NCBI GenBank assembly: GCA_964403285.1
Contig: CAYOFG010000002.1
Location: 21,104 to 85,103 of the forward strand
Source: an uncultured Clostridia bacterium
GTDB taxonomy: Bacteria > UBA6262 > WVXT01
DNA: 64,000 nt
Reading direction: 5' to 3'
The translations under genes and the position numbers were made by a program. Every line of letters begins with the position of its first letter. The first letter of the stretch is position 1. A model generated the notes under the pieces. It had not been told where the DNA came from. It saw only the letters and a list, made by a program, of their open reading frames with translations, and searched no databases. Shown in pieces: positions 1,609 through 35,819 of this stretch.

Positions 1609-2289
1609 ATGAATAAACGCATAAGGTATCACACATCATTAACTTTACCTGATGAGAAATCTCCCACCGGGGAATCTTACAGGGCTTTACGAACAAACAT
1701 TTTACGAACCACCCAGGATAAGTTGATGAAGGCAATTTTAATTACCAGTTCCAACCATTATGAGGGTAAGACTACCACGGCCATTAACTTAGCCTTAGCT
1801 ATGTCCGATGTTCCCGGGTATAAAACACTTTTAATCGATTCGGATTTGCGATTTCCAACTGTGCATGATAGATTAGGCCTGATGCAAAGTCCGGGGCTAA
1901 CCGAAATTCTGGAGGGAAGTGTAGGATTGGATTCAGAGATAATCGACACGGAAAAGGAAAATCTCAAAGTAATAACATCCGGGAATTTACCACACTATCC
2001 AGTAGAATTACTCGAATCAAAAAGATTAATGAACCTTATAACAGAGCTAAAATCACATTTTGACCTGATTCTCGTAGACTCTCCCCCGCTTATTCCATAT
2101 AGCGATGCAAGTGTGTTGAGTTCCCAGGTGGATGGAGTTTTACTTGTGGTCCAATCGGGTAGGACCCGCCGGGAGGATATCCAACAAGTGCACGCCACCT
2201 TACAGGATAATCAAGCTAAAGTATTAGGTATAGTGTTAAATAGGCAAAAACATTTTGTCCCTGATAGAATATATAAACGCCGGTTTTAG
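1609..2289 (+). CDS. BY-kinase-like P-loop ATPase (CpsD/CapB family, MinD/ParA fold)
   Basis: Walker A-like SNHYEGKTTT, Walker A' LLIDSDLRFP, Walker B LILVDSPP. The canonical PGEGKS glycine is replaced by Ser-x4-GKT, and the C-terminus (…DRIYKRRF) lacks a tyrosine cluster. Confidence 0.7.
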   Translation: MNKRIRYHTSLTLPDEKSPTGESYRALRTNILRTTQDKLMKAILITSSNHYEGKTTTAINLALAMSDVPGYKTLLIDSDLRFPTVHDRLGLMQSPGLTEILEGSVGLDSEIIDTEKENLKVITSGNLPHYPVELLESKRLMNLITELKSHFDLILVDSPPLIPYSDASVLSSQVDGVLLVVQSGRTRREDIQQVHATLQDNQAKVLGIVLNRQKHFVPDRIYKRRF

Positions 2290-2298
2290 AAATAATGT

Positions 2299-2351
2299 TG
2301 GAGTAGCTCCGATTTCATCGGAGCGTTTGGAGTAGCAGACCTTGGTCTGCG
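2299..2351. repeat. tandem hairpins of the GGAGTAGCAGAC-family element (terminator-like)
   Basis: gctccgat-ttca-atcggagc followed by gcagac-ctt-ggtctgc. Related copies occur at 14242-14295, 34893-34915, 39905-39946 and 5851-5894. Confidence 0.6.
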
Positions 2352-2356
2352 TTTAG

Positions 2357-2378
2357 AAAAAGTACCTGTCACTTTTTC
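2357..2378 (+). promoter_or_regulatory. conserved element AAAAAGTACCTGTCACTTTTTC immediately upstream of the RBS of the 1144-aa secreted protein gene
   Basis: Near-identical copies in the same orientation relative to the downstream gene occur at 54090-54106, 56956-56976 and 56992-57014. Each is followed within 0-20 nt by an SD-like sequence. Confidence 0.5.
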
Positions 2379-2402
2379 TTACTTTTTAAAAGGAGGTTTA
2401 GA

Positions 2403-5400
2403 ATGGTCAATCAAATGAGAAGGGTGGGGCGGTTTGGTATTTTATCTCTCTTCTTTGTTTTGGTATTTACAAATTCTGTCTGGGCAATATGGGTAGACGC
2501 CGATGGTTCAGGGAAGGAATCAATAAACATCTCCACTAATACTGGGAATTCTGAGTATCCTTCTCTTTATTTAGATAGTTCGAGGAATCCCCACATTGCC
2601 TGGTTTGATTCTACTGAAGTAGACGAGGAGATTTATTTTCTTAAATGGAATGGCACGGAATGGGTGGATGCTGATGGTTCAGGAAAGACATCCATAAACA
2701 TATCAAAGACTGTCGGAAGTTCTTATCAGCCTTCCCTTTGTTTGGATGGTTCGGGGAAGCCCCACATTGCCTGGAAAAATTATACCCCAGGAAACTATTA
2801 TGAGATCTATTATCTTAAATGGAATGGCTCAGAATGGGTAGATGCCGATGGCTGGGGTCAGGGCTCAATAAACATCTCCAATACCAGCACCGATTCTTTT
2901 CATGCTTCTCTTTGTTTAGACAGTTTGGGGAAGCCGCATATTGCCTGGTTTGAAGCTATTTCAGGGAATAGTGAGATTTATTATCTCCAGTGGAGTGGCA
3001 CATCTTGGGTAGATGCTGATGGTTCAGGAAAGGAAGGAATAAACATCTCCAATAATCCCGGGGATTCTAAAGACCCTGTTCTTTATTTAGATAGTTCAGG
3101 TAAACCTCACATTGCCTGGCATGACGATACTTCGGGAAATGAGGAGATTTATTATCTTAAATGGAATGGCTCAGAATGGGTGGATGCTGATGGTTCAGGA
3201 CAGGGAGAGATAAATGTATCAAAGAGACCCGGGGATTCCGGGTATGCCTCTCTTTGTTTAGATAGTTTGGATAATCCTCACATTGCCTGGTATGATTATG
3301 CTTCAGGAAAGAATGAGATTTACTATCTTAAATGGAATGGCATAGCCTGGGTAGATGCTGATGGTTCAGGACAGGGAGAGATAAATGTCTCCAATACTAC
3401 TGGGATTTCTAATTATCCTTCTCTTTATTTAGATGTTTCGGATAATCCTCACATTGCCTGGCACAATTCTTCCGGACTAAATGACATTTATTATCTTAAA
3501 TGGAATGGCATAGCCTGGGTAGATGCTGATGGTTCGGGAAAGGGAGAGATAAATATCTCAGCTAATGATGGGGATTCTAGCTATCCTTCCCTCTATTTAG
3601 ACGCTTCGGGAAATCCACATATTGCCTGGAAAGACAATACTTCAGGAAACTATGATATTTATTATCTCAAATGGAACGATGGACCTGTATTATCCTGGAC
3701 AGGAGAAACAAATTATAGTAACGATGGTTTACATCCTCAAACGGGCTATCGCGATACTGATTTTATTTACAGGGTAAAGTATATGGACGTGAATAACGAC
3801 GGACCAAAATCAGGTTATCCTAAGTTACATATTATGAAAGGCGGGTCAGAAATAGGCGTGTTTACCATGGACGAAGTAGATCCAGGAGATACGACTTATA
3901 GCAATGGGAAACTTTATACTTACACCAAAAGTGGATTAGTTGCATTAGGCGATGATTATACTTATTACTTTGAGGCAAAAGACATTTGGAATACTCCAGC
4001 AACTGGTGCACCAACTAGTTCTCAAGATGGTCCGGACGTTATAAACCGTGCTCCTACACTATCCTGGACGGAAGAAACGAATTATGCTTCTGATGGATTG
4101 GATCCCGAAGTTGGCCCTCGCGAGACGAGTTTTGTTTACAAGGTAAAATATACAGATGAGGACAACGACCTCCCGGCAGCAGGTTATCCTAAATTACATA
4201 TTAAGAAGGGTGGAACACCAATATCTGGAAGTCCATTTCCCATGAGTCCAGTAGATCTAGGAGATAATAATTACGCTGATGGGAAACTTTATGCTTACAC
4301 TAAAATCGGATTGGAACCGGGAACGGACTATACTTATTACTTTGAGGCAAATGACGTTTGGAACATTCCCGCAACAGGCGACCCCACCAATCCTGTTGAT
4401 GGGCCCGACGTCGCAAACATTCTTCCCACACTATCCTGGACAGGAGAAACGAATTATGCCTCTGACGGCTTGGACCCCGAAATTGGCCCTCGCGGGACTA
4501 GTTTTGTTTATAGAGTAAAGTATACAGACGAGGAGAACGACGCTCCGGCATCAGGTTATCCTGAGTTACATATTAGGAAGGGTGGGTTGGAGATAAGCGG
4601 AAGTCCGTTTACTATGGACGAGGTAAATTCAGGAGATAAGAATTACAATGATGGGAAACTCTATACCTACACCAAAAGTGGACTAACACCCGGAGAAAAT
4701 TACACTTATTACTTTGAGGCAAAAGACTTATGGGATGGTGTAGCAACAGGCGACCCAACGAATCCTGTTGACGCCCCGGACGTTACAAACATTGCTCCCA
4801 CATTATCCTGGACAGGAGAAACGAATTACACGAGTGATGGCTTGAATCCTGAAACCGGTTATCCTGATACTAATTTCACTTACCGGGTAATTTATGCAGA
4901 CACCGATAATGATGCTCCGGCATCAGGATATCCTAAATTACATATCAAGAAGGCCGGGAAAGAGATAAGCGGGAGTCCGTTTGCTATGAGCGAAGTAAAT
5001 GCAGGAGATAAAGATTACACTGATGGCAAGGTCTATGCCTCCGCCAAGAGTGGACTGGCACCAGGAGAGGATTATACTTATTACTTTGAAGCAAAAGACT
5101 TATGGGATGGTGCAGCAACGGGAGATCCAACCAATCCTCTTGCTGGACCTGACGTGGGAAACCTTGCTCCCACATTATCTTGGACGGGAGAGACAAATTA
5201 TACTGAGGATGGCTTGGACCCTGAAGTTGGCTCTCACTATACTGATTTCATTTACAGGGTAAAGTATGCGGACCCGAACAATGACGTTCCCGCATCAGGT
5301 TATCCCAGGTTGCATATCAAAAAGGGCGGGATAGAGATAGAAGGAAGCCCATTTACTATGCGCGAGGTAAATACGGGAGATAAGAATTACAGGGACGGCA

Positions 5401-5837
5401 AACTTTATACCTATACAAAGGGTAGATTACCAATGGGGATGGATTATACTTATCACTTCCAGGCAAAAGACTGCTGGAACAGTGTGGCAACAGGCGATCC
5501 GACCAGCGCCATTGATGCCCCGGACGTCCTTATCGGGTTCTCGGCAATAGGCGAAGTAAAGATTCAGGGAGGGGAAAACGGTTATGTTAATCCCCTGAAA
5601 GGCGAGGAAGCAGAGATCCATTTCTGGCCGAGCACTCAGGGAACAGTAAATGTTGAGATTTTTGATTTGATAGGACTGCTTGTCTGGGAAAAAAGTAAAG
5701 CTGTAACAGGAGCTCAAGATTCCATTAAATGGGATTGCAGAAACAATGAGAATGGTCTGGTGGCTTCGGGAATTTATGTTGTCTTTGTGAAAGGTCCGGG
5801 AATAAATGCTACCAAAAAAGTTGCAGTTATGAAATAA
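2403..5837 (+). CDS. large secreted repeat protein: signal peptide, 7 x ~55-aa repeats, 5 x ~120-aa repeats, C-terminal FlgD-Ig/T9SS-like sorting domain
   Basis: RBS aaaaggagg lies 7 nt upstream of the ATG. N-terminal signal peptide FGILSLFFVLVFTNSVWA. Repeat A motif: WVDADGSG..INIS..PSL.LD..G.PHIAW....EIYYLKWNG. Repeat B motif: PTLSWTGETNY.SDGLDPE...FVYRVKYTDEDND.P..GYPKLHIKKGG...YTYYFEAKD.W. C-terminus ...IKWDCRNNENGLVASGIYVVFVKG....KKVAVMK resembles the C-terminal domains of the beta-helix proteins downstream. Confidence 0.8.
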   Translation: MVNQMRRVGRFGILSLFFVLVFTNSVWAIWVDADGSGKESINISTNTGNSEYPSLYLDSSRNPHIAWFDSTEVDEEIYFLKWNGTEWVDADGSGKTSINISKTVGSSYQPSLCLDGSGKPHIAWKNYTPGNYYEIYYLKWNGSEWVDADGWGQGSINISNTSTDSFHASLCLDSLGKPHIAWFEAISGNSEIYYLQWSGTSWVDADGSGKEGINISNNPGDSKDPVLYLDSSGKPHIAWHDDTSGNEEIYYLKWNGSEWVDADGSGQGEINVSKRPGDSGYASLCLDSLDNPHIAWYDYASGKNEIYYLKWNGIAWVDADGSGQGEINVSNTTGISNYPSLYLDVSDNPHIAWHNSSGLNDIYYLKWNGIAWVDADGSGKGEINISANDGDSSYPSLYLDASGNPHIAWKDNTSGNYDIYYLKWNDGPVLSWTGETNYSNDGLHPQTGYRDTDFIYRVKYMDVNNDGPKSGYPKLHIMKGGSEIGVFTMDEVDPGDTTYSNGKLYTYTKSGLVALGDDYTYYFEAKDIWNTPATGAPTSSQDGPDVINRAPTLSWTEETNYASDGLDPEVGPRETSFVYKVKYTDEDNDLPAAGYPKLHIKKGGTPISGSPFPMSPVDLGDNNYADGKLYAYTKIGLEPGTDYTYYFEANDVWNIPATGDPTNPVDGPDVANILPTLSWTGETNYASDGLDPEIGPRGTSFVYRVKYTDEENDAPASGYPELHIRKGGLEISGSPFTMDEVNSGDKNYNDGKLYTYTKSGLTPGENYTYYFEAKDLWDGVATGDPTNPVDAPDVTNIAPTLSWTGETNYTSDGLNPETGYPDTNFTYRVIYADTDNDAPASGYPKLHIKKAGKEISGSPFAMSEVNAGDKDYTDGKVYASAKSGLAPGEDYTYYFEAKDLWDGAATGDPTNPLAGPDVGNLAPTLSWTGETNYTEDGLDPEVGSHYTDFIYRVKYADPNNDVPASGYPRLHIKKGGIEIEGSPFTMREVNTGDKNYRDGKLYTYTKGRLPMGMDYTYHFQAKDCWNSVATGDPTSAIDAPDVLIGFSAIGEVKIQGGENGYVNPLKGEEAEIHFWPSTQGTVNVEIFDLIGLLVWEKSKAVTGAQDSIKWDCRNNENGLVASGIYVVFVKGPGINATKKVAVMK

Positions 5838-5850
5838 GAAGACTGTAGCT

Positions 5851-5894
5851 GCAGAGCGATAGCTCTGCCAAGGAAAGCAAAGCTTGCGCTTTGC
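5851..5894. terminator. two consecutive stem-loops (gcagagc-gata-gctctgc; gcaaagc-ttgc-gctttgc) after the large repeat-protein gene
   Basis: Perfect 7-bp stems directly after the stop codon. Related to the GCAGAGC hairpin at 39929-39946. The T-tract is weak, so this may be an RNA-stability or processing element rather than an intrinsic terminator. Confidence 0.4.
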
Positions 5895-5932
5895 GGCTAC
5901 AAAAAAAGATAATGGTCTTGAAGGAGGTAAAG

Positions 5933-6835
5933 GTGAAAAAAATTCTTATTCTTTCTATTTTTCTGGTTCTGGTTCTGGCAAATGGTTTATGGGCAAAAGG
6001 AGCAGGGACATCCAGCGCGATTGTGCTCCAGCAGCCGATAGGCGCAAGAGCCTCGGGGATGGCAGAGGCTTATACTGCGGTGGGGGGAGAAATATGTGTC
6101 CTCCATTATAATCCAGCGAGCTTGATTTCTCTTCCTGGTCGAGAGGCTGCCTTCAGCTATCAGCGAGGCCTAGCCGATGATAGTTTTATGAGTCTTCTTT
6201 ATGGCCAGCCAACTTCTGTGGGAGTCTTCGCAGGGGCTTTCTCCTACTACACAGCGGGAGACATTGACCTGATCGACCTTGACGGAAATGAGTGGACGGC
6301 AAAGGCAGAGCAGGATTTTGTAATACTGGCTGGCTTTGCCCGCAAGTTTGTGGAGAATTTACCGATGGGCATAAACCTGAAGATAGTCTCCTCAAGACTC
6401 GTAGAAGTCAAGACGGGTACGGCTTTTGCAATAGATCTGGGAGGACTTTACTACACACCAATAGAAGGTCTGGCGGGAGGATTGGCGATTCGAAATTTGG
6501 GGACAACGCTTAAATTCCTCGATGAAAGTGATTCTCTTCCTTTGACAATTTCCGTTGGGGCTGCTTTTCAGAAGCATTTTGGCAGCCAGAAAATTTTACT
6601 GAGCGCAGATTTCCCTTTTTTGGTTTATGAACAGAAAGTTACTCCAGCAGTTGGTTTTGAGTTTGACTGGCGAGAGATGGTTCAGGGAAGAATTGGTTAT
6701 AAATTCAACATTGATGATACTGGACTTGCTCTGGGTATGGGATTCTCGTATCAGAGCTATTTCATTAACTATGCCTTTGGCCTGGCAGACAGGTTAGAAA
6801 ATGGACACCGGGTAAGTCTGGGCGTAAGATTTTAA
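5933..6835 (+). CDS. FadL-like outer-membrane beta-barrel protein (PorV / PorP-SprF / PorQ-like), partner of the upstream CTD protein
   Basis: GTG start at 5933 lies 5 nt after RBS aaggagg. Signal peptide KKILILSIFLVLVLANGLWA. N-terminal FadL-like motif GARASGMAEAYTAVGG...YNPASL. Ends in aromatic-rich beta-strands (…VSLGVRF). The 5891 ORF-track start would run through the upstream hairpins. Confidence 0.6.
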   Translation: MKKILILSIFLVLVLANGLWAKGAGTSSAIVLQQPIGARASGMAEAYTAVGGEICVLHYNPASLISLPGREAAFSYQRGLADDSFMSLLYGQPTSVGVFAGAFSYYTAGDIDLIDLDGNEWTAKAEQDFVILAGFARKFVENLPMGINLKIVSSRLVEVKTGTAFAIDLGGLYYTPIEGLAGGLAIRNLGTTLKFLDESDSLPLTISVGAAFQKHFGSQKILLSADFPFLVYEQKVTPAVGFEFDWREMVQGRIGYKFNIDDTGLALGMGFSYQSYFINYAFGLADRLENGHRVSLGVRF

Positions 6836-6849
6836 AATTAGGGGAAAAA

Positions 6850-8340
6850 TTGTATCTTTATGACTCTGGGATAAGTGACCGTTATAGAATTGGCTGGCCA
6901 GTGATTGTTATTCTGGGAGGAATAATCTGCGGATTTTTTATATTGTTCCTCACCCTACTTCCAGCCAGGTGGGGAGTGCTTGGCGCCATAGGAATAATGG
7001 TTCCCTTTATTGCCCTAATGACAGGAAATGAGAAGCGTTTCTTTTTGGCAATATTGGTGTTCGCTTTACCAATACAACTGGATATAACTATTGGATATAC
7101 GGGACATCTCGGGGGAGCAGCCGGATTCATAATATCGCTGTATGATATCACCCTTGCTATTCTATACATATTCTGGATTAGTGAATTTGTAAGAAATAAG
7201 AAGAGAATTAACTTTTTCCCCAGAATAAGCCTACCTTTCTTTTTCCTGGTTGGCATGGCTACATTATCAATGGCCAATGCTTCCTTCCCAAAATTGAGCT
7301 TGTTTGAGATAGTGCAAGTGCTCAAAATGTATCTGGGCTTCCTTTATATAGGAAATAATATCAAAAGCAGGAAAGAAATTCAATTTGTGATTGTTTTTTT
7401 GCTTTTAGGCCTTTTTTTAGAAAGTCTGCTTGGTCTTGCCCAATATAAGTTTGACCGCCCTCTTGTTCCCAGTGTATTGGGCGGGCCGGAAAAGGTGGGA
7501 TACATAAGACTTGGTGAGCCAATGTCCAGGATTTCGGGTACATGGGTATCTTACAATGATTTTGCCTGGTATCTCACATTTATGCTGCCTATCTCTCTGA
7601 GTCTACTCTTCTCCAGAATAAGGGGAAGCTATAAGATAATGTGTGGTTTAATATTAGTTGCCGGGATTGGTGCTCTGATATGCACTCTCTCCCGGGCAGG
7701 ATGGTATAGTTTTGTAGTAGCTGCTCTAATAGTATTATTATTGAATTTTTCAAAAACCAAAGGAAAAACAGGACTGAATAATTTTGCCACATCGATTGTC
7801 GCCATTCTAATTGTTATCTCCGTTATATTCACTGTGAACCCTCAATTCTTAAATATCGTCAATCGTCGAGTTGTTAGTGACGATTACGACGCTGCATATT
7901 CCCGCATCCCTCAAATGCAAGTAGCTTCGAACATAATAAGGGCTAATCCTCTCTTGGGTATAGGGATTAATAATTACACAGAAGTTATGGATCAGTATGA
8001 TACGACGGACGTTAAACTTACATCCATAACCCGACAGCAGGTGCACAATATATTCCTGCAAGTCGCGGCAGAAATGGGCGTCGCCGGCCTTGCCATTTTC
8101 ATCTGGCTCATATTTATGGTTTATAAAGAGGGCTTGAGTTACATTAGGTTCAGTGAAGATTCAATGTCAAACGTAGTTGTAGGTCTTATTGGGGGAATCA
8201 CGGCTTTTTTGATCCACGGCCTGGTAGATGCAGCATCTTTGGGAAACCATCTATTTCTTATATTCTGGTTTTTCACTGGCATGGTTATTGTAATAAAGAA
8301 AATTACATTGCAGGCAAAACCTTCTGTTGTGGGAGCTTAA
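6850..8340 (+). CDS. O-antigen polymerase/ligase family membrane protein (Wzy-like)
   Basis: At least 10 predicted TM helices. Large loop containing LSRAGWY, similar to the Wzy_C/O-antigen ligase signature. Positioned between the outer-membrane barrel and the flippase. The TTG start is uncertain. Confidence 0.55.
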   Translation: MYLYDSGISDRYRIGWPVIVILGGIICGFFILFLTLLPARWGVLGAIGIMVPFIALMTGNEKRFFLAILVFALPIQLDITIGYTGHLGGAAGFIISLYDITLAILYIFWISEFVRNKKRINFFPRISLPFFFLVGMATLSMANASFPKLSLFEIVQVLKMYLGFLYIGNNIKSRKEIQFVIVFLLLGLFLESLLGLAQYKFDRPLVPSVLGGPEKVGYIRLGEPMSRISGTWVSYNDFAWYLTFMLPISLSLLFSRIRGSYKIMCGLILVAGIGALICTLSRAGWYSFVVAALIVLLLNFSKTKGKTGLNNFATSIVAILIVISVIFTVNPQFLNIVNRRVVSDDYDAAYSRIPQMQVASNIIRANPLLGIGINNYTEVMDQYDTTDVKLTSITRQQVHNIFLQVAAEMGVAGLAIFIWLIFMVYKEGLSYIRFSEDSMSNVVVGLIGGITAFLIHGLVDAASLGNHLFLIFWFFTGMVIVIKKITLQAKPSVVGA

Positions 8341-8344
8341 GTGA

Positions 8345-9829
8345 ATGAACACAGTTAAGAGATTAGTCAAAAATACAGGGTTTGTACTATTGGCACAGGC
8401 TGCAGAACCGGTATGCTCCTTTATATTGGTATTATTCATTGCTCGTTCCTTAGATGTCTCTGGTCTGGGTAAGTTTTCTATTGCCATCTCTCTTTTCTTC
8501 ATTTTTCAGACTATCTCTTCTCTGGGTTTTTCCCACCTGATTACGAGAGAAGTTTCCCGCGACATATCAAAAGCAGGCAAATACTTAATTAACGCCTCTG
8601 TTGTGGGATTTCTCTTCTCAGTTCTGACAGCGGGAGCGATGTGTCTGGCAGGTTATCTATTGAATTATTCGGCAGATACTGCTTTAGCCATTTATATTCT
8701 CAGTCTTGCCTTGATACCTATAGTATTTTCTCTGGTTTGTCATTCTATATGTAGAGCTTTTGAAAGACTGGAATATGTTAGTATTCCGTTTATAACAGGC
8801 AATTTATTCAAAGTCGCGATTGGTTTGCTCATCTTATTTAAGGGCTATGGTTTAGTGGAATTAATGTTAGTAATCCTGGGGAGCTATCTTTTAGACTCGC
8901 TTATCAGTTTATACTTTGTTCTCAAGTGCACGGGAAGACTACTTTTCAAAATAGATTTTGGTTTTTGCAAATGGATTGTCAAAACCACTCCCACTTTTGC
9001 TCTTATTTTTATCTTTGCCACTCTTTATTGGAACGTGGATATCATTATGCTATCCAAAATTAAGGGGGCAACAGAAGTCGGTTTCTATAGCGCCGCTTAC
9101 AAATTAATGAATGTGTGGAAGATAATTCCCCTGGGTTACCTTATGGCATTACAACCCGTTATCTCCAGATTGTTTGAGTCTTCTTTAGAAAAATTTAGGA
9201 TAGCCTGCATCAACTCGATTAGATACCTATTTATGGTAATGTTGCCCATTGCTGTGGGAACTACACTCTTGAGCGACAATTTTATAGTTCTTTTCTTTAA
9301 GGAACGCTTTTTAGCTTCGGCAAATTCTTTGTCCATTCTCATCTGGACATTGGTTCCCTATACTATAAATATGACAATTGCTCATGCCTTGATTGCCAGT
9401 AATAATCAAAAGGTAAACTTACGCTCACTCCTTATTAGTATGATGTGCAATGTTACCTTGAATTTCTTATTAATACCGAGATTCAGTTACTCGGGCGCAG
9501 CTATGACAACCTTGATTTCAATCTGTATATTCCTGGGTTTACAATATGGATTTGTCTCTAAGAATCTATTTACACTCAACTTCTTTCATATTGCTGGAAA
9601 ACCGATTATTTCCGCAGCTTTGATGGGAATAACTATTTTGTTACTTAGACAGCTCAACCTGTTTCTTATAGTGCTCATTGCCACATTAGCTTACGTCTTG
9701 TTCTTATTAACACTCAGGCCATTCTCGGCAACCGACGTACAGCTTTTCCGGAGACTGTGGGAAAGAGATAAGGGATTGATTATATTACAAACTCAGAAAT
9801 CATCTGAGCACAATCCTTCAAAAGAATAA
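8345..9829 (+). CDS. wzx: polysaccharide flippase (Wzx/RfbX, MOP superfamily)
   Basis: N-terminal 'LVKNTGFVLLAQAAEPVCSFILVLFIARSL..GLGKFS' is typical of Wzx. About 14 TM helices throughout. Confidence 0.75.
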   Translation: MNTVKRLVKNTGFVLLAQAAEPVCSFILVLFIARSLDVSGLGKFSIAISLFFIFQTISSLGFSHLITREVSRDISKAGKYLINASVVGFLFSVLTAGAMCLAGYLLNYSADTALAIYILSLALIPIVFSLVCHSICRAFERLEYVSIPFITGNLFKVAIGLLILFKGYGLVELMLVILGSYLLDSLISLYFVLKCTGRLLFKIDFGFCKWIVKTTPTFALIFIFATLYWNVDIIMLSKIKGATEVGFYSAAYKLMNVWKIIPLGYLMALQPVISRLFESSLEKFRIACINSIRYLFMVMLPIAVGTTLLSDNFIVLFFKERFLASANSLSILIWTLVPYTINMTIAHALIASNNQKVNLRSLLISMMCNVTLNFLLIPRFSYSGAAMTTLISICIFLGLQYGFVSKNLFTLNFFHIAGKPIISAALMGITILLLRQLNLFLIVLIATLAYVLFLLTLRPFSATDVQLFRRLWERDKGLIILQTQKSSEHNPSKE

Positions 9830-14241: not shown

Positions 14242-14295
14242 GGAGTAGCAGGTTTTAACCTGCGTTTTAAGACGCAGACTAAAGTCTGCTACTCC
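14242..14295. terminator. double hairpin of the GGAGTAGCAGAC-family element between asnB-like and GT4 genes
   Basis: ggagtagcagg-ttttaa-cctgc, then gacgcagactaaagtctgctactcc (the reverse-complement copy of the 34893 element), forming a long composite stem. Confidence 0.5.
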
Positions 14296-28147: not shown

Positions 28148-28279
28148 AATTCGGTACTGGGATTATGGCGTCAGAATATCCCGCCTTTAAACCCTCCTTT
28201 CAAAATTAACAAAATTTTGGAGTCCTCCCGAAAGGGAGGTTGAAAAAACAAACCCTTGTTTTCGCAAGGAGGTATGGAA

Positions 28280-29812
28280 ATGAGTGTTTCTAAAAATTTC
28301 TTCAAGTATTGCTTAGTATTTTCTTTAGTCCTGATAATTCCATTATGTATTCCAACTTTGGCGCAAGCAACCATCTATTATGTAGCACAAGATGGCAGCG
28401 ATAGTAATCCTGGAACGGAAACAGAGCCTTGGGCAAGTGTTGATAAAGCGGCAGATACAATGAAAGCTGGCGATACCGTTTATGTTAAACAAGGAACTTA
28501 TAGCGGATTTCAGGTATCCAGAAGCGGAACTGCTGGCAATTACATATCATATCTTGCCTACCCAGGAGCTACTCCAAAAATTGGGCAGATTTATTTTGGA
28601 GAAGGAGCAAGTTATAATAAATTTCACGGGTTTGAAATCACGTATCCCTCCGGAGGAGGGGTGCAAATGAACAATAATAATGACCATAACATGATATCAA
28701 ATTGCCACATTCATCATTGTAACCCAAGTGGAAGTTGTGGAGTGGATATAAGTGGTGGCAGTGATTTTAACATAATAGAAGATTGTATTATTCATGACGT
28801 CTACTATGCTGCTCACACGAGCGGAAGCACCAACAGAGGAAATGTCTTTCGCAGAAACATATGTTACAATATTTCTGATGATGGTTTTAATTTCTCTCCT
28901 TCTACCAAAGATACTCAGGTCATTGATAATGTTATTTATGACGTAGACTGGGATGGAAGTGGGGGAGCAGATGGTATCCACCTTTTCGAAGATGGGAGTG
29001 CAATTGTAAGGGGAAATTTAGTTTATCATGACCGTGCCGCGAGGGGCGGTGTCTTTTGGATTAACGGTGGAAGCAATCACATTATTGAAAATAACACGTT
29101 TGTCGGTCTTCCTGGTTTTACCACTGATTATGGCGGAATAATCTGGATTGAGGTAAATTCGAATGTTACTCTCAAGAATAATATCGGTTACTCAAGTAAC
29201 GGCTCAATAGGTGTGGTTACGGGGATAAATTCTTCTACGAATGATGATTACAATGACTGGTACAATTCTGTTAATAAATCGATGTGCGTGCGATACGGAG
29301 GGGAATGGAAATCTGTTTCTGAATATCAGAAGGAAGATGGTAGAGGACTCCATTCTATTTCCCTGAACCCAGAATTTGTAAATCCTGTAAGTGGTGAAAG
29401 TGGCGATTTTCACTTAAAGCCCGGGTCTCCTTGCGAAGGTACTGGCGAGAATGGGGCAGATATGGGAGCTTACGGCGTGGCAATACCTGACTCCAGTAAA
29501 GACGAGGGAAAGGCGGAGATCAAAGTCCTCAATCGCCCCAATCCCTTTCGTGCCGGCAAGGAAGCGACTCTAATACAATATGAACTCAGTCAACCTTCCA
29601 ATGTTATAATTACAATTTACAACCTCCTGGGTGAAGAAGTATGGCGTAAAAGTTATGAAGCGGGAGAAAACGGTGGCAGGGAAGATAACATCGTTCCCTG
29701 GGATGGAAAGAACGCCTCGGGAGAAGTGGTAGGAAATGGAGGCTATGTCTGCCGCATCTGGGTGGAAAAAGAAAATAGGTATGTGGTAAGGAAGATTGCT
29801 GTTGCCAAATAG
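28280..29812 (+). CDS. secreted right-handed parallel beta-helix protein (DUF1565/pectate-lyase-like fold) with C-terminal FlgD-Ig/T9SS-like sorting domain
   Basis: ATG at 28280 lies 7 nt after RBS aaggagg. Signal peptide MSVSKNFFKYCLVFSLVLIIPLCIPTLAQA. DUF1565-type start TIYYVAQDGSDSNPGTETEPW..ADTMKAGDTVYVKQGTY. Repeated N/H-rich beta-helix rungs. C-terminal NRPNPFRAGKEATLIQYEL…ITIYNLLGEEVW…WDGKNASGEVVGNGGYVCRIWV…RKIAVAK. Confidence 0.75.
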   Translation: MSVSKNFFKYCLVFSLVLIIPLCIPTLAQATIYYVAQDGSDSNPGTETEPWASVDKAADTMKAGDTVYVKQGTYSGFQVSRSGTAGNYISYLAYPGATPKIGQIYFGEGASYNKFHGFEITYPSGGGVQMNNNNDHNMISNCHIHHCNPSGSCGVDISGGSDFNIIEDCIIHDVYYAAHTSGSTNRGNVFRRNICYNISDDGFNFSPSTKDTQVIDNVIYDVDWDGSGGADGIHLFEDGSAIVRGNLVYHDRAARGGVFWINGGSNHIIENNTFVGLPGFTTDYGGIIWIEVNSNVTLKNNIGYSSNGSIGVVTGINSSTNDDYNDWYNSVNKSMCVRYGGEWKSVSEYQKEDGRGLHSISLNPEFVNPVSGESGDFHLKPGSPCEGTGENGADMGAYGVAIPDSSKDEGKAEIKVLNRPNPFRAGKEATLIQYELSQPSNVIITIYNLLGEEVWRKSYEAGENGGREDNIVPWDGKNASGEVVGNGGYVCRIWVEKENRYVVRKIAVAK

Positions 29813-31649
29813 AAAGCAGGCGAAGGTGGGAGAAAAGAGAGTTTTTAAAATATTCTGTATCTGGTTGTTAATTTTTGGGTTGCAGTGGCAATTTGTCAGG
29901 GTAGATAATTACTGCGGGATGCCCGATGACTATTTGCAATACGCGGTAAACGAAGTAGTAGTAACCGGCAGTGTCTATTATGTAGAAAAAGGTGGCAGTA
30001 ACAGTTGGGACGGTTCTCTTGAGCATCCCTGGCAGACCATTCAAAAAGCCGCCGATACTATGGTTGCTGGGGATACTGTCTACATTAAGGAAGGAGTTTA
30101 TACTGAAAGAGTCGTGGCTCAACAATCAGGCTCTCCTGAAAAATTTGTAACCTACATGGCATATCCCGGACATAAATCAGTTATAGACGCAGGCGGAACT
30201 GGAACGGCATTCAGTATCGTCGGGAAAAGTTACATAAAGATAGATAGTCTCGAGATAAAAAACGCTGGAGGCTGGGGAATACTTGTGGAAGATTCTACGA
30301 ACATTGAAATAAGAAATGTAAAAGTTTCTTACAGTAATTGGGAAAACATACAAATCAGAGGTGATTCCAGTCAGGTTCTTCTGGAAAACTGTGACGTCAG
30401 TCATAGCCAAAATTATTCTGGCATAGATATATATCAATATAATGGCCGTCCGCATCATGTGACAGTAAGGAACTGTACTGCCCATCATAATGAGCAATTT
30501 GCTGGCATAGGCAGTGAACAAGCAGATAATTTAATAATTGATTCAAATGTCTGTTATAACAATCGACTGGGTGTAGATATCGGAAGCGGAGACAAGAACA
30601 TTATTAGAAACAATACTGTTTACGACTGCGAAACTGGCATTGCTTTAAGCTCCAATGAAGATTCTGAGGTTTATGAAAATACTATTTACAATATTAAAAA
30701 TGAAGCAATTTATAGTTATTGCTTCAGTGTACACGGCGAAGCCCATACCAGAAATAAATGGTATAGAAATATAGTCTATAACTGTGGTTTTGGAATTTAC
30801 GAAAGCAAATGGGATAGGCAGCCAATTGAGGGGATTTCGTCAGACCATGAATTCTATAACAACCTTTTCTATGATATAGGAACCCACGGTACTTATCGCG
30901 TACCATTTTATTTCCAAGGTTCAACAGGCATTAAATTTCGTGACAACACTATCTATATGAATCCAAACTATGATGCAGTCCAATTCCTTCAAGGCGCCAT
31001 TAATTCAAAAATCGAAAATAACATTATAAGCATAAGTGGGGATAAATCTCCAATCATAATGGATAGTTCATCCAGTAGTGGTGCAGTAGTTGATTATAAC
31101 TGTTACCACAATAGGGCTGGTACTGTAGGTTCGGGGGAACATTCGATTGCTAAAGACCCAAAATTTGTTGATGTCCCGGGTCACGATTTCCATCTCCAAA
31201 AGACCTCCCCCTGCGTAGATGTTGGTGATCCTGCTACCGGTGCTGATTTCGACCTTGATGGTAGGCAGAGTCCCCAAGATGGTGATGGAGACGGAGACCC
31301 AATAGTTGATATGGGAGCTTATGAGTATCCAGGACCCAGTCCCCCTATCGAGGGAGTAGAAGTCCTCAATCGACCTAATCCGTTCCGTGCGGGTAAAGAA
31401 GAAACTCAGATAGAATATAATCTCAAGCAACTTTCCAATGTAACAATTACAATTTACGACCTCTTGGGTCAACAGGTCTGGCGTAAAAGTTATAGGGCAG
31501 GGGAAAACGGTGGCAGGGAAGTGAATAGCGTTCCCTGGGATGGGAAGAACGCCTCGGGAGAAGTGGTAGGAAATGGAAGCTATGTCTGCCGCATCTGGGT
31601 GGAAAAAGAAAATAGGTATGTGGTAAGGAAGATTGCTGTTGCTAAATAG
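29802..31649 (+). CDS. secreted beta-helix protein with same C-terminal sorting domain; N-terminal signal peptide and first mature residues homologous to the FadL-like barrel genes
   Basis: Probable TTG start at 29802, 7 nt after an aaggaag RBS embedded in the last codons of the upstream gene. Signal peptide NRKQAKVGEKRVFKIFCIWLLIFGLQWQFVRV, then DNYCGMPDDYLQY matching the barrel N-termini. Beta-helix core, a DGDGDGD calcium-like loop, then the sorting domain. Exact start codon is uncertain (29796/29802/29826). Confidence 0.65.
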   Translation: MPNRKQAKVGEKRVFKIFCIWLLIFGLQWQFVRVDNYCGMPDDYLQYAVNEVVVTGSVYYVEKGGSNSWDGSLEHPWQTIQKAADTMVAGDTVYIKEGVYTERVVAQQSGSPEKFVTYMAYPGHKSVIDAGGTGTAFSIVGKSYIKIDSLEIKNAGGWGILVEDSTNIEIRNVKVSYSNWENIQIRGDSSQVLLENCDVSHSQNYSGIDIYQYNGRPHHVTVRNCTAHHNEQFAGIGSEQADNLIIDSNVCYNNRLGVDIGSGDKNIIRNNTVYDCETGIALSSNEDSEVYENTIYNIKNEAIYSYCFSVHGEAHTRNKWYRNIVYNCGFGIYESKWDRQPIEGISSDHEFYNNLFYDIGTHGTYRVPFYFQGSTGIKFRDNTIYMNPNYDAVQFLQGAINSKIENNIISISGDKSPIIMDSSSSSGAVVDYNCYHNRAGTVGSGEHSIAKDPKFVDVPGHDFHLQKTSPCVDVGDPATGADFDLDGRQSPQDGDGDGDPIVDMGAYEYPGPSPPIEGVEVLNRPNPFRAGKEETQIEYNLKQLSNVTITIYDLLGQQVWRKSYRAGENGGREVNSVPWDGKNASGEVVGNGSYVCRIWVEKENRYVVRKIAVAK

Positions 31650-32928
31650 AAAGCAGGGGAAGGTGAGAGAAAAAACGGTTTTTGGAATATTTATTATTTG
31701 TTTATTAATTCTTGGGCTGAATTGGCAATTTGTTACAGCAGAGAATTACTACGGAATGCCTAACGACTATTTGCAGTACGGGGCAGGAGCGAGGTCTTTA
31801 GCCATGGGAGGAGCGTATGTAGCCCTGGCAGATGAGGCAAGTGGACCTTATTGGAATCCTGCAGGCTTAACACAGGTTGAGGAATACCAGTTCCTTTCTA
31901 TGTATGCTCCCTTCTTTGAACAGACTAGTTATAACTTCCTTTCTTATGTTAATCCACTGGGACGGCTGGGGAACGTGGCTATTTCCGATGTTTTTCTCTA
32001 TTCGGGAGGGTATGAAGAAGTTGATAAAGACGGAAACGTTCTGGGCGCGAATCAGTCAATATTCAATAATGCCATAATTATTTCTTATGCAAACAGAATT
32101 TATAGACACTTGTCCCTGGGAGCAAATTTGAAACTGATTCATGAGCGAGTGATGAAATATTCAGGGAACAGCCAGGGAATAGATTTGGGGATACTTTGTA
32201 AGCCTTTGGATGAACTGAGTATTGGCTTAGTAGTGCAAAATGTACTCCAGCCAAAGGTGACTCTGATAGATGAGCCTAACGTGTATGGTACAAATGTGAA
32301 AGGTGGTGTGGCATTGAAAACATACTATAACCGCCTAATACTGACCGCAGATATCAATAAGCTCGTTGACGAGAAAGCATATTTCTGTACAGGAGTAGAG
32401 TTTTCTCCCTGGGAGAAGGTTACGTCCTCTTCTTTGAAAAGAATAGATCTAAGGGCAGGAATCAACCATTTGCAATCATTTACCTGTGGAATAGGATTAA
32501 AGATAAATTTTTTCTCTCTGGATTACGCATTTAATATTCATAGGATAGGAAATCTCCACAAATTTGGCCTTACTTTTCGCTGGGGAAGTATCTATAAAGC
32601 GAGAGCCAGACCTGTTCTGGGGTCAGGAAACACTTATTGGGTTGGACCATCGGGGGAGCCCCTGAAATTTCTTATCGAAATGCCATCAATTACTATAGAA
32701 AAATGGACTCTGACGATAAAAGATGAAAAGGAGAAAATTGTGACGGCCTTCGAAACGACGAGGCATAGACCGAAAATTATCAGGTGGAATCTACGTGACC
32801 AGAAAGGAAAGTTGGTAAAGAACGGATATTATTACTACGAATTTAGCGTTATTTATAAAGATGGTAAAAAATGGATTGACAATGGAGAGATAAAGCTCCA
32901 GTATAAAGAAACATTGCCAAATCAATAA
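31639..32928 (+). CDS. FadL-like outer-membrane beta-barrel (PorV/PorP-SprF-like) with additional C-terminal FlgD-Ig-like domain
   Basis: TTG start lies 7 nt after an aaggaag RBS inside the upstream CTD codons. Signal peptide ending VTA|EN. YGMPNDYLQYGAGARSLAMGGAYVALADEASGPYWNPAGLT. Barrel ends in FGLTFRWGS. An extra ~100 aa (…IEKWTLTIKDEKEKIVTAF…IIRWNLRDQKGKLVKNGYYYYEFSVIY…) has an FlgD-Ig-like motif pattern. Confidence 0.6.
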   Translation: MLNRKQGKVREKTVFGIFIICLLILGLNWQFVTAENYYGMPNDYLQYGAGARSLAMGGAYVALADEASGPYWNPAGLTQVEEYQFLSMYAPFFEQTSYNFLSYVNPLGRLGNVAISDVFLYSGGYEEVDKDGNVLGANQSIFNNAIIISYANRIYRHLSLGANLKLIHERVMKYSGNSQGIDLGILCKPLDELSIGLVVQNVLQPKVTLIDEPNVYGTNVKGGVALKTYYNRLILTADINKLVDEKAYFCTGVEFSPWEKVTSSSLKRIDLRAGINHLQSFTCGIGLKINFFSLDYAFNIHRIGNLHKFGLTFRWGSIYKARARPVLGSGNTYWVGPSGEPLKFLIEMPSITIEKWTLTIKDEKEKIVTAFETTRHRPKIIRWNLRDQKGKLVKNGYYYYEFSVIYKDGKKWIDNGEIKLQYKETLPNQ

Positions 32929-32976
32929 TCCTGCCCTATAATCCCTGCCTTAAAACCCCTTTAAAATTTACAAAAA

Positions 32977-33016
32977 CTTAACAAAAACTTAACATTTTCT
33001 TAACATATACTTAACA
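32977..33016 (+). repeat. four direct copies of CTTAACA at exact 11-bp spacing (starts 32977, 32988, 32999, 33010)
   Basis: aaaaCTTAACAaaaaCTTAACAttttCTTAACAtataCTTAACAtc lies in an AT-rich intergenic region about 240 bp upstream of the 33253 beta-helix gene. One-helical-turn phasing suggests a protein-binding array. Confidence 0.6.
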
Positions 33017-33252
33017 TCATTGTGTTATACTTAGATTGTAGTAATCATAAGCTGTTCTGAAAACTGAATATTTTATGGCTCGATAAAGGCAAACCATTCG
33101 AAAGGGTGGGACGTAAAACCGCGGGTCCCCGATATATCAGGGACAGCCGGGTTACCGAAGCCAGCAAAGTAATAGATCCCTGGTTTTTCGAATGGAAAGC
33201 CAGGGTTTTCTATTTTATTAGCCATAAACGACTCTTCAAGGAAGGTAGTGCT

Positions 33253-34851
33253 ATGAGGGTTTCCAAAAAATTATTTAAATATCGTTTAGTGTTTTCCGTA
33301 GCCTTAATAGGTTTATTATGTATTTCAACCCGGGGACAAGCAACGACATATTACGTTGGGGAAAATGGCAGTGATACTAATCCTGGGACAGAAGCAAAGC
33401 CCTGGCTGACTGTTGATAAAGCTGCCGATACAATGGTTGCTGGCGATACTGTCTACATTAAACAAGGAACTTATAGCGGATTTATGGTATCCAGAAGCGG
33501 AACTGCCGATAATTACATATCATACCTTGCCTACCCGGGAGATACTCCCATAATTGGCCAAATATATTTTGGGAATGGAGCAAGCTATAACAAATTCTAT
33601 GGTTTTGAGATTACCTATCCCTCTGGCGGAGGGGTACAGATGAATCATAACAACGATTATAACATAGTATCAAATTGCCACATTCACCATTGTAATCCAG
33701 GTGGAAGTGTTGGAGTTGACTTAAGTGGTGGTAGTGATTTTAACATAGTAGAAGATTGTATTATTCATGATTGCTACTATGCTATTCACACAAGTGAAAG
33801 TACCAATAGAGGAAATATTTTCCGCAGAAATGTATGTTATAGGATTTCTGATGACGGTTTTAATTTTTCTCCTTCTACCGAAGATACACAGGTTATCAAT
33901 AACGTTATTTATGATGTAGGCTGGGACGGAAGCGGGGGAGCGGATGGTATTCATCTTTACGATGATGGGACCGCAATTGTAAGGGGAAATCTGGTTTACC
34001 TTGATAGTGATTCAACGGGAGGCGTCTTTTGGCTCCATGGGGGGACAAATCACGTTGTTGAAAATAACACATTTGTTGGTCTTCCTGGTTTTTCTACTGC
34101 TTATGGAGCGATAATCTGGCTGGAAATGGCTTCCAACGTTATTCTCAAAAATAATATTGGTTATTCAAGTGATGCTTCAATAGGTGTGGTCATGGGAATA
34201 GATTCTTCTACTAATGATGATTACAACGACTGGTATAATGCTTCTGATCCGTCAATGTGTGTGCGGTATGGAGGGGAATGGAAATCTGTTTCTGATTATC
34301 AGAGCCAGAATGTAAGGGGTTTGCATTGTATCTCTCAAGACCCAAGATTTATAGATTTTGCAAACCATGATTTTCACCTGCGGCCCGATTCTCCATGCAT
34401 AGGCACTGGTGAGAATGGAGTTGATATGGGAGCTTACGGAGCGGGAGAATCTGTTCCTGTTTACGAAGATCCGGAAGTTCCTGTTTACGAAGATCCGACA
34501 AAACCCGACTCTTCAGCCGAGAATCCACCAGAAACTGAATCCCAGAGCGATGGTGTGGATGGAGTCCACAATCAACCCAATCCTTTCCGCGCGGGTAGAG
34601 AGGAAACTCTTATAAAATATGGTTTAGAGCAATCTTCTAATGTAACAATTACTATTTACGACCTCCTCGGTCAAGAGGTATGGCAGGAGAATTATCGTTC
34701 AGGAGAAAACGGTGGTAGAGAAACGAATAGCGTGTCCTGGGATGGAAGAAACCTCTCGGGGAAAGTGGTGGCAAATGGAGGTTATTTCTGTCGCATCTGG
34801 GTGGAGAAAGAGAGAAGGCATATGTTGAGGAAGATTGCTGTCGCCAAATAA
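33253..34851 (+). CDS. secreted right-handed beta-helix protein (DUF1565-like), paralogue of 28280..29812, with C-terminal FlgD-Ig/T9SS-like sorting domain
   Basis: ATG at 33253 is preceded by RBS aaggaagg. Signal peptide MRVSKKLFKYRLVFSVALIGLLCISTRGQA. High identity to the 28280 gene throughout the beta-helix. The linker has PVYEDPEVPVYEDP repeats. C-terminal sorting domain ends RKIAVAK. The 33106 ORF-track start adds an unsupported 49-aa leader. Confidence 0.75.
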   Translation: MRVSKKLFKYRLVFSVALIGLLCISTRGQATTYYVGENGSDTNPGTEAKPWLTVDKAADTMVAGDTVYIKQGTYSGFMVSRSGTADNYISYLAYPGDTPIIGQIYFGNGASYNKFYGFEITYPSGGGVQMNHNNDYNIVSNCHIHHCNPGGSVGVDLSGGSDFNIVEDCIIHDCYYAIHTSESTNRGNIFRRNVCYRISDDGFNFSPSTEDTQVINNVIYDVGWDGSGGADGIHLYDDGTAIVRGNLVYLDSDSTGGVFWLHGGTNHVVENNTFVGLPGFSTAYGAIIWLEMASNVILKNNIGYSSDASIGVVMGIDSSTNDDYNDWYNASDPSMCVRYGGEWKSVSDYQSQNVRGLHCISQDPRFIDFANHDFHLRPDSPCIGTGENGVDMGAYGAGESVPVYEDPEVPVYEDPTKPDSSAENPPETESQSDGVDGVHNQPNPFRAGREETLIKYGLEQSSNVTITIYDLLGQEVWQENYRSGENGGRETNSVSWDGRNLSGKVVANGGYFCRIWVEKERRHMLRKIAVAK

Positions 34852-34865
34852 ATAGGTGTAGATAT

Positions 34866-35819
34866 ATGAAAAAGAGATGGCTGAAATCATCGGGAGTAGC
34901 AGACTTTAGTCTGCGTTTTCTTGTTTTGGTGTTAATTTTTGGTATGCATTGGCAACTTGCCCGGGCAGATAATTACTATGGAATGGCTAATGACTACTTG
35001 CAGTACGGAGCAGGAGCAAGGTCTTTAGCATTAGGGGGAGCATATGTGGCACTGGCAAATGAGGCGAGCGCGCCTTATTGGAACCCTGCAGGCTTGACAC
35101 AAATTAATAAAAACGAGTTCCTTGCCATGTATGCTCCCTTCTTTGAACAGACAAGTTATAACTTTGTTTCCTACGTTCATCCCCTTGGAAGACTGGGGAC
35201 TTTGGCTATTTCCGATGTTCTCTTCCATTCCGCAGGGTATGAAGAAGTTGACAATACGGGAAATGTAATTGGCAGGAATAAATCAATATTCAAGAATGCA
35301 GTAATCATCTCTTACGCGAATAAGATTCATAAACGTCTCTCTCTGGGAGCAAGTTTGAAACTGGTTCATGAGCGAGTGATGAGATATTCAGGGAATGGCC
35401 AGGGAATAGATTTGGGGATACTTTATCAGCCGTTAGACGCGCTGAATATCGGATTAGCCGTGCAAAATGTCTTGCAGCCGGAGATCACCCTAAGATACGA
35501 CGCCGATGTGTATGATATGAATTTTAAGGCCGGTGTGGCGCTGAAGACATTTTCTAACCACCTCATCCTGACTGCGGATGTCAATAAGCTCGTTGACGAG
35601 AAGGCGTACTACTGTGCCGGTTTGGAAGTTTCTCCCTGGGAGAAAATATCTTCGCCTTATTTGAAAAGAGTGGATTTGAGGGCAGGATTCAACCACTTGC
35701 AATCATTTACCTGTGGAATAGGATTGAAGATAAACTTTTTCACCGTGGATTATGCCTTTAGTCCTCATGACATGGGAAATCTACACAAATTTGCCCTTAC
35801 TTTTAGCTGGGGAAAATAG
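34866..35819 (+). CDS. FadL-like outer-membrane beta-barrel (PorV/PorP-SprF-like), partner of the upstream CTD protein
   Basis: Signal peptide MKKRWLKSSGVADFSLRFLVLVLIFGMHWQLARA|DN. DNYYGMANDYLQYGAGARSLALGGAYVALANEASAPYWNPAGLT. About 85% similar to the 31639 barrel without the extra domain. Confidence 0.6.
   Translation: MKKRWLKSSGVADFSLRFLVLVLIFGMHWQLARADNYYGMANDYLQYGAGARSLALGGAYVALANEASAPYWNPAGLTQINKNEFLAMYAPFFEQTSYNFVSYVHPLGRLGTLAISDVLFHSAGYEEVDNTGNVIGRNKSIFKNAVIISYANKIHKRLSLGASLKLVHERVMRYSGNGQGIDLGILYQPLDALNIGLAVQNVLQPEITLRYDADVYDMNFKAGVALKTFSNHLILTADVNKLVDEKAYYCAGLEVSPWEKISSPYLKRVDLRAGFNHLQSFTCGIGLKINFFTVDYAFSPHDMGNLHKFALTFSWGK

Follow-up and report, generated by a model that had tools for sequence, protein, structure and literature searches.

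A beta-helix protein gene carrying the putative export signal of a PorV/PorQ-family barrel gene, and gene conversion at its junctions

Introduction

We analysed a 64-kb stretch of contig CAYOFG010000002.1 (the window), which comes from a deep-branching uncultured bacterium that is not a member of the Bacteroidota, and found in it a beta-helix protein gene that has the 5' end of an outer-membrane barrel gene. This gene, B, is the second of five co-oriented genes on the forward strand at 28.2-35.8 kb in the list of open reading frames (ORFs): A1, B, C1, A2 and C2. A1, B and A2 encode right-handed beta-helix proteins, each with an end domain of approximately 90 residues (the C-terminal domain, CTD) that matches FlgD_ig, CHU_C and the type A sorting domain of type IX secretion systems (T9SS); C1 and C2 encode predicted barrels of the PorV/PorQ family. 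Comparison with related loci shows that the fusion in B has a single origin and took place before the clade diversified. We consider it likely that an ancient in-frame fusion of this kind, followed by later gene-conversion patches between three segments composed of a CTD, a spacer and a signal peptide, explains the arrangement as a whole.

Gene B joins a barrel-gene 5' end to an unrelated beta-helix core

A sequence-only reading of the window had proposed that the beta-helix gene carries the 5' end of a barrel gene, and this is confirmed: a signal peptide and 13 mature residues of barrel type are joined to an unrelated beta-helix core, so that B shows two parents and a sharp breakpoint within one ORF. 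The reading frame is open from 29796 and ends at 31649. The most likely start, GTG at 29826, aligns with the ATG of the orthologues and opens a predicted Sec-type signal peptide of 26 codons (29826-29903) whose nearest neighbours at the DNA level point to an origin in a PorV gene. Next comes a 13-codon remnant, DNYCGMPDDYLQY, of the mature N terminus of a PorV-like barrel (29904-29942), delimited by the comparison of orthologue with barrel identity and by the breakpoint at 29943/29944. These 117 nt at the 5' end of B are homologous to C1 and C2 (78-81% identity), and identity falls to 27% at 29944. The core (29943-31359) comprises a short linker (AVNEVVVTGS) and a beta-helix carbohydrate-active domain matching Pfam Beta_helix and NosD, and the gene closes with its CTD and stop codon (31360-31649), recognised by TIGR04183, FlgD_ig and repeat family D1.

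The remainder of B is homologous to beta-helix proteins with other signal peptides. A PDB sequence search matched the core to 3vst, a GH120 xylosidase (8.6e-15), with the alignment starting at about residue 51, and we predict that B is a secreted, glycan-active beta-helix enzyme. Searches with B returned 16 full-length proteins of 73-95% identity, all of which begin with a PorV-type signal peptide, continue with a version of DNYYGMPNDYLQY and then with A.NE..ATG.VYYV. By contrast, distant homologues of the B core (at most 57% identity, e.g., from Anaerolineae metagenome-assembled genomes (MAGs) and other phyla) have ordinary, unrelated signal peptides, no barrel motif and no CTD. Exact-sequence look-ups of B (with TTG and GTG starts) and of C2 found no match on record, and an AlphaFold2 (AF2) model of B built from 16 close orthologues (mean pLDDT 52.6) was not used.

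The fusion is old and its barrel remnant is decaying

The comparison set consisted of 34 metagenome loci, two long contigs and one MAG contig; a scan of genome contigs with B alone gave no relatives and, with the alignment, one close 5-kb contig and three distant ones. The order X-B-C1(-A2-C2) is present in approximately 30 close relatives (L001-L003 and L007-L035), in which B is 73-95% identical to that of the window. In full, the approximately 30 relatives that cover the region show a sugar transferase gene, a CTD cargo gene, B and a PorV-like gene; contigs that extend further also have a second cargo gene followed by a second PorV-like gene. The fusion point (...LQY|A.NE...) is identical in all B 5' ends recovered, from 24 loci. 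Gene order and fusion point together show a single ancient fusion in the ancestor of the clade, and a recent or ongoing capture is not supported. Ribosomal protein S1 is 80-98% identical inside the clade and at most 55% identical outside it. A motif scan of all fetched loci found no further chimeras with the barrel N-terminal motif beyond B and the barrel genes.

The remnant has diverged far more in B than in the barrels. The barrels hold [ED]NYYGM[AP]NDYLQYGAGARSLAMGGAYVALA nearly invariant, while the B orthologues have variants such as DNFHGTPNNHLQS, DNCRGTPNDRLQS and, in L033, a shortened form. Mean pairwise identity of this segment is 60% among 21 B orthologues versus 89% among 18 barrels, with 82% at the start of the B beta-helix, and we conclude that constraint on the 13 residues has relaxed and that they persist as a vestige. 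At position 4, where all barrels have Tyr, 11 of the 21 B orthologues have Cys. The predicted signal-peptidase site has changed as well: it reads V-R-V|D in B (29898-29915) and V/A-x-A|E/D in barrels, and the -1 residue is A or G in 18/18 barrels versus V, L, I or T in 11/21 B orthologues. B may be poorly cleaved, or cleaved at another site. The borrowed signal peptide itself has been kept and presumably serves the export of B.

One sub-lineage (L003, L027, L028, L029, L030, L032 and L033) has a B of 467-488 aa that has lost the CTD and kept the barrel-type signal peptide; the gap from B to C1 is 110-200 nt there, too small to hold a CTD. The function of B is therefore not strictly dependent on the sorting domain.

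Gene conversion acts on the repeated junctions

The sequence-only reading had noted a duplicated segment of more than 90% identity around the start of B, and 29655-29830 and 31495-31670 are indeed identical at 162 of 176 positions (92.0%). The segment is part of a longer ungapped repeat with an offset of 1,837 nt (29523-29943 and 31360-31780), which has 65 mismatches in 421 nt (84.6% identity). Its first copy, junction repeat J1, has as its left part the A1 CTD with the stop codon at 29810-29812 (29523-29812; repeat family D1, with FlgD_ig and Por_Secre_tail matches); the B CTD takes the same place in the second, J2. The left edge coincides with the CTD start, the preceding 123 nt being only 28.5% identical, and the right edge is sharp, at 29943/29944 directly after the ...DYLQY codons, with 26.8% identity (random level) over the next 157 nt. 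A third copy (34562-34861 plus 34930-35007) is 74-81% identical to the first; its second part, at the C2 5' end, is the third copy of the segment of signal peptide and motif. As also noted from the window, similarity continues through the signal-peptide codons at lower identity, namely 78-81% among B, C1 and C2 when the 13 mature codons are included.

Mismatches between the two copies are very unevenly spread. Only 5 of the 65 fall in a tract of approximately 145 nt (29692-29836, partner 31529-31673), against approximately 20% mismatches in the flanks; the tract covers the 3' end of the CTD, the stop codon, the 13-nt spacer, the GTG start and 4 codons, and was delimited by mismatch map, permutation test and nearest-neighbour switch. 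It includes a perfect run of 64 nt from 29742 (permutation test, P = 0.0006), and so few mismatches in a 135-nt window were obtained in none of 20,000 permutations. Synonymous sites take part: third codon positions differ at 17/51 sites in the 5' part of the CTD versus 4/45 in the 3' part (Fisher p = 0.006). The nearest neighbour also switches from orthologue to paralogue within the CTD, since, for the B CTD of the window, the 5' half finds its best match in orthologous B CTDs (94.9%) and the last 135 nt in the A1 CTD of the window itself (94.8%; best orthologue 89.6%). In most other loci, J1 and J2 are 76-86% identical over the same segment. Raised identity including synonymous sites, diverged flanks and the switch from orthologue to paralogue are what gene conversion leaves behind, and on these comparisons the segment of >90% identity is a separate, later conversion patch on a paralogous background of approximately 80%. 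The earlier proposal of recombination or gene conversion thus stands for the repeats of CTD, junction and signal peptide, but the highly identical segment is distinct from the fusion and younger than it.

Other exchanges are visible at these junctions. In L001, J1 equals J2 at 99.3% through the CTD, B has the C-terminal region of A1, and the signal peptides of B and C1 are 98% identical; in L011 and L014, J2 and J3 (the CTD ends of B and A2) are 95.6% and 91.1% identical. At the DNA level, most B signal peptides (19 of 24) group with those of other B genes, but that of the window is nearest to the C1-type signal peptides of L012 (86%) and L011 (85%) and not to B of its closest relatives; its B spacer and GTG start are likewise of C1 type. 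Repeated homologous exchange among tandem paralogues has made the junctions mosaics.

Origin of the fusion and competing explanations

In the explanation that we favour, the ancestor would have carried three cargo-barrel pairs, A1-C0, B'-C1 and A2-C2. One illegitimate in-frame deletion, beginning near codon 13 of mature C0 and ending close to where signal peptidase would cut B', would have removed the C0 barrel together with B's own signal peptide, and B would thereafter have been expressed from, and exported with, the C0 start region. The fusion was fixed before the sampled clade diversified, and the borrowed signal peptide would have been kept as a working export signal, with the 13-residue barrel remnant drifting as a linker. 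Afterwards, the three homologous segments of CTD, spacer and signal peptide swapped short patches by gene conversion: an earlier exchange would have given B its C1-type signal peptide and GTG start, and the ~145-nt tract would have been homogenised recently in this genome, giving the identity of >90%. Pair units elsewhere support a three-pair ancestor, namely A2-C2 and 2403/5891 in the window and those in the distant lineages L042 and L043 (described below).

Several observations weigh against this explanation or parts of it. The ancestral arrangement A1-C0-B'-C1 was found in no genome among the relatives examined, the clade being isolated, so that we infer the deletion route rather than observe it. 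The nearest non-chimeric relatives of the B core are without a CTD; B' would therefore have gained its CTD earlier, or more than one step would have been involved. Within the CTD, conservation of the protein sequence is highest in the 3' part, and some of the raised identity in the conversion tract thus reflects constraint, although J1 and J2 of most other loci reach no more than 76-86% over this segment. Lastly, the V at position -1 of B in this genome is poor for signal peptidase I.

That the nearest non-chimeric relatives of the B core come from other phyla and have no CTD suggests a horizontal origin of the core. This would fit an insertion, in which a barrel gene took up a foreign beta-helix fragment without a signal peptide, and a duplication of the junction later gave back the barrel and CTD. 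Such a route needs at least two rare events, versus one for the deletion, and no intermediate is present in the approximately 30 loci; we regard it as unlikely.

A recent capture in this genome, through an active form of the cassette shuffling at CTD boundaries proposed from the window, is improbable. It could draw on the recent conversion tract at the junction, on the C1 type of the window's B signal peptide, on L001, where the whole C-terminal part of B was replaced by that of A1, and on the variation of position-1 cargo cores between lineages with the CTD kept (PF12708 type in L018 and L031 versus Pel9A-like). However, the shared fusion point extends to B proteins of 73% identity, the remnant has drifted, and the junctions have no associated recombinase, integrase or specific repeat; moreover, the later exchanges broke within conserved coding motifs, as plain homologous recombination predicts. 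As the origin of the fusion itself, recent capture is refuted by the comparative loci. A dedicated shuffling mechanism is unneeded, because homologous recombination among tandem paralogues with a shared domain suffices; what stands of the shuffling proposal is a weak form, in that position-1 cores vary while the CTD is kept.

The topology, with its direct repeats, would be exactly that of a tandem duplication from just past the A1 signal peptide to about codon 13 of mature C1, which in one step would give A1, a C1 5' end fused to an A1 body, and C1, so that B would be a diverged copy of A1. We consider this very improbable: the B core is approximately 25% identical to A1, yet A1 and A2 share 76% of residues in the core; its identity to proteins of other phyla reaches 57%; and the Pfam signature of B differs from that of A1 (NosD/DUF5123). 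B as a copy of A1 is excluded by the current similarity values.

Signal peptides are generally alike in composition, but the idea that the N-terminal resemblance is convergent or generic, or the duplication an assembly artefact, can be dismissed in view of the 78-80% DNA identity over 142 nt that include the 13 mature codons, the sharp breakpoint, the confinement of the barrel N-terminal motif to B and the barrel genes among all loci scanned, the 15% of sites at which the copies differ, and the recurrence of the structure, with the same gene order, in approximately 30 independent metagenome assemblies.

Start codons, spacers and transcription signals

In related loci, B starts at an ATG 13-17 nt past the CTD stop codon and C1 at a GTG or ATG 13 nt past it, and GTG 29826 (B) and GTG 31663 (C1) of the window align with these starts. 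The public gene call for C1 (P0241) is the exact 421-aa product from 31663 (100% match). Many related loci have an in-frame TAA or TAG 9 nt upstream of the start, so translation cannot begin within the CTD codons. In an alignment of approximately 45 junctions from related loci, the spacer, which in the window occupies the 13 nt between A1 and B (29813-29825; AAAGCAGGCGAAG), carries a purine-rich motif resembling a Shine-Dalgarno sequence (AAGGGAAG, AGGGGAAG or AGGAGAAG).

The sequence-only reading had placed the ribosome-binding site, AAGGAAG, in the last CTD codons and had deduced translational coupling of cargo and partner. That motif lies at 29788-29794, 31 nt from the GTG start; the starts after the CTD stop in related loci speak against such a role, and the motif is conserved because it codes for R-K-I of the CTD. 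The coupling claim depended on a start at TTG 29802, which related loci do not support: many of them have an in-frame stop between this TTG and their own start, and the candidate was rejected. The 13-nt gaps are compatible with ordinary coupling inside an operon.

The upstream limits of the cargo genes are probably shorter than the listed ORFs: for A1 we place the start at ATG 28280 (its orthologue P0075 begins MSISKNFFKY) and for A2 at ATG 33253. A1, B and C1 are probably one operon, as judged from the 13-nt spacers and, after C1, a promoter-like site at 32914-32942 and a terminator-like hairpin at 33178-33205. This hairpin has 12 bp, is GC-rich and is accompanied by a T-run. The intergenic region between C1 and A2 also holds, at 32960-33020, three overlapping promoter-like matches with 11-nt spacing (TTAACA...TAACAT repeat).

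Two kinds of small elements occur at or near junctions. A 20-nt palindrome, GTAGCAGACTTTAGTCTGCG, resembling repetitive extragenic palindromic (REP) sequences is found three times in the window (0 expected), at 34896-34915, 14273-14292 (reverse strand) and 2332-2351. The copy in C2 is read in frame and contributes GVADFSLRF to the n-region of that protein's signal peptide; the element is also inserted at several related junctions (L001, L010 and L024), once in an intergenic position (L010 J1). An element of 85-90 nt, resembling miniature inverted-repeat transposable elements or REP sequences, lies directly 3' of the CTD stop in L001 (9912-10000 and 11777-11865), L008 (after 5349), L017 (after 5400), L028 and L029. 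It has terminal inverted repeats (GTAGGGG...CCCCTAC) and two internal hairpins, and is absent from the window.

Barrels, cargo proteins and neighbouring pairs

The downstream partner had been described as a FadL-like barrel. The fold is right; more exactly, C1 (31663-32928, forward strand) and C2 (34866-35819, forward strand; 317 aa; repeat family D4) score 118.5 and 126.6 bits against NF033709, the PorV/PorQ family model with a cut-off of 90. Scores against the equivalog models were 34-69 bits for PorV (NF033710, cut-off 250) and 73-86 bits for PorQ (NF033711, cut-off 220), both far too low. By these profile scores, C1, C2 and a further barrel at 5891-6835 are members of the PorV/PorQ family, not orthologues of PorV or PorQ. 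Since a PDB sequence search with C2 gave E = 0.42 only for the best PorV match, fold comparison was used instead. An AF2 model of C1 from 42 homologues (pLDDT 86.6, pTM 0.79) had PorV as its top Foldseek matches (8gl6_F, E 3.8e-12; 6h3i_F, E 8.3e-12), followed by TodX and FadL. The C1 signal peptide spans 31663-31740 and the invariant N-terminal motif 31741-31779; in the model, the motif segment sits before the first strand, in a plug-like N-terminal region. C1 also has an extra C-terminal, all-beta immunoglobulin (Ig)-like domain at approximately 32603-32905 (residues ~314-414), with weak FlgD_ig and DUF928 matches. Such a domain, of the same fold class as the cargo CTD, is present in C1-type barrels (413-448 aa) and lacking in the C2 type (308-348 aa).

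For the cargo CTDs we applied cut-offs of 23 bits for TIGR04183 and 27 bits for FlgD_ig (PF13860), bearing in mind that TIGR04183 / PF18962 overlaps FlgD_ig. The B CTD passes the type A test at its extreme C terminus (TIGR04183 28.1 bits, FlgD_ig 30.4 bits), A2 reaches 28.4 bits for FlgD_ig and, just under the cut-off, 22.5 bits for TIGR04183, and A1 stays under both cut-offs (18.0 and 23.2 bits), with a CTD that is 85% identical to that of B at the protein level. The n-, h- and c-regions of an N-terminal signal peptide can be recognised by eye in A1, B and A2. A1 (28256-29812, forward strand) is a Pel9A-like beta-helix cargo gene (Pfam Beta_helix and Pel9A-like matches), and A2 (33106-34851, forward strand; CTD 34562-34851) is its paralogue. 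The cargo cores at positions 1 and 4 (in the window, 28256-29522 and 33253-34561) co-vary: they are 72-86% identical within a genome and approximately 50% identical between sub-clades, while B is 80-85% identical. This pattern suggests that cargo cores evolve in concert or were replaced together. In L018 and L031, a PF12708 beta-helix replaces the Pel9A-like type at position 1 with the same CTD.

The surrounding 40 kb form an exopolysaccharide locus with genes for a chain-length determinant, a tyrosine kinase, a Wzx flippase, GT4 glycosyltransferases, a sugar transferase and a UDP-glucose dehydrogenase. The same locus contains another cargo-barrel pair, 2403-5837 and 5891-6835. Its cargo is a 1,144-aa BNR/filamin-repeat protein whose C terminus is weakly Por_Secre_tail-like; its barrel scores 145.1 bits against NF033709 and has an N terminus without the NYYG motif. 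No T9SS translocon component (SprA/Sov, PorK/L/M/N) and no PorU was identified among the ORFs scanned in the window.

The distant lineages L042 (a MAG labelled Elusimicrobiota; 1386-8521) and L043 (1211-15332) also have cargo-barrel pairs, in which the CTD and the NYYG..DYLQYG motif recur. Here the cargos are giant proteins of 1,884-1,899 aa ending in ...GNGGYICRIWIEKERKQLIRKIAVVK, each followed by a PorV-like barrel that starts ...KNYYGQPNDYLQYG, with NYYGQPNDYLQYG as the start motif. L043 has two tandem pairs, whose junctions (CTD end, spacer and signal peptide) are 95% identical and whose flanks are 71-85% identical, a further independent patch of conversion. Among the papers listed by a literature search that combined Elusimicrobia with PorV or T9SS, none covered both.

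Relation to known systems and significance

It is well known that a deletion joining two neighbouring co-oriented genes can create a chimeric gene, and that gene conversion makes tandem paralogues evolve in concert. The locus shares the features of both: the in-frame fusion has a sharp breakpoint without homology, synonymous sites are included in short tracts of high identity, and the phylogenetic signal is incongruent along the gene. What is particular here is that an outer-membrane protein gene donated an export signal. Both the fusion and the conversions are ordinary products of evolution, and no new shuffling mechanism is needed to explain them.

In Flavobacterium johnsoniae, the shuttle gene for type B CTD cargo, of the PorP/SprF kind, lies directly downstream of the cargo gene (PMC12618676). 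The pairs described here resemble these in having a putative Sec signal peptide on the cargo, a C-terminal sorting domain, a barrel gene immediately downstream and several pairs per genome: the barrel gene directly follows the cargo gene at B-C1 (13-nt gap), A2-C2 (14-nt gap) and 2403/5891, in approximately 30 related loci and in L042 and L043. They differ in that the CTD is type A / FlgD_ig-like, the barrel belongs to PorV/PorQ and the host lies outside the Bacteroidota. NCBIfam and Pfam scans assigned the CTD to type A / FlgD_ig / CHU_C and the barrel to PorV/PorQ, and gave no PorP/SprF match. With its type-A-like CTD and PorV-family barrel, the locus is therefore not a member of the type B CTD / PorP-SprF class. 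PorV itself, the FadL-fold T9SS shuttle of F. johnsoniae and Porphyromonas gingivalis (6h3i, 8gl6), is the best structural match of the C1 model, but C1 differs from it in a sequence identity of 18%, in equivalog cut-offs that are far from reached and in its extra Ig-like domain.

The T9SS cargo genes kgp, rgpA and hagA of P. gingivalis are reported to undergo domain rearrangement and allelic exchange (PMC5266723). The likeness is that repeated shared modules are exchanged by homologous recombination to give mosaic genes; there, however, adhesin domains are exchanged between dispersed genes and strains, while here the exchanged segments belong to tandem neighbours and consist of the CTD, the spacer between the genes and the signal peptide, and B, one of the partners, has a 5' end that derives from a barrel gene.

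All type A CTDs in Bacteroidota are reported to use a single PorV (PMC12618676). We tentatively suggest, as a possibility that we rate well below even, that cargos with type-A-like CTDs might each have a dedicated PorV-family barrel encoded immediately downstream, both here and in distant lineages, MAGs labelled Elusimicrobiota among them. The 3' end of the CTD, the spacer and the signal peptide of the barrel might then make up a homogenised junction module that keeps the pair co-expressed and anchors swaps of cargo cores in front of resident barrels; B would have taken over the expression slot of a barrel.

B provides a clean natural case of a putative secreted enzyme with an export signal from a neighbouring outer-membrane protein gene, retained over a long time, and as such is of use for teaching and annotation. 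In the B family, the start should be set at the GTG or ATG past the CTD stop, and an N-terminal NYxG..YLQY is not to be mistaken for homology to barrels. Of possibly greater importance is the setting: in polysaccharide loci of bacteria outside the Bacteroidota, cargos with type-A-like CTDs are paired one-to-one (here two-to-one) with PorV-family barrels, which departs from the published view of a single PorV for all type A CTDs (PMC12618676).

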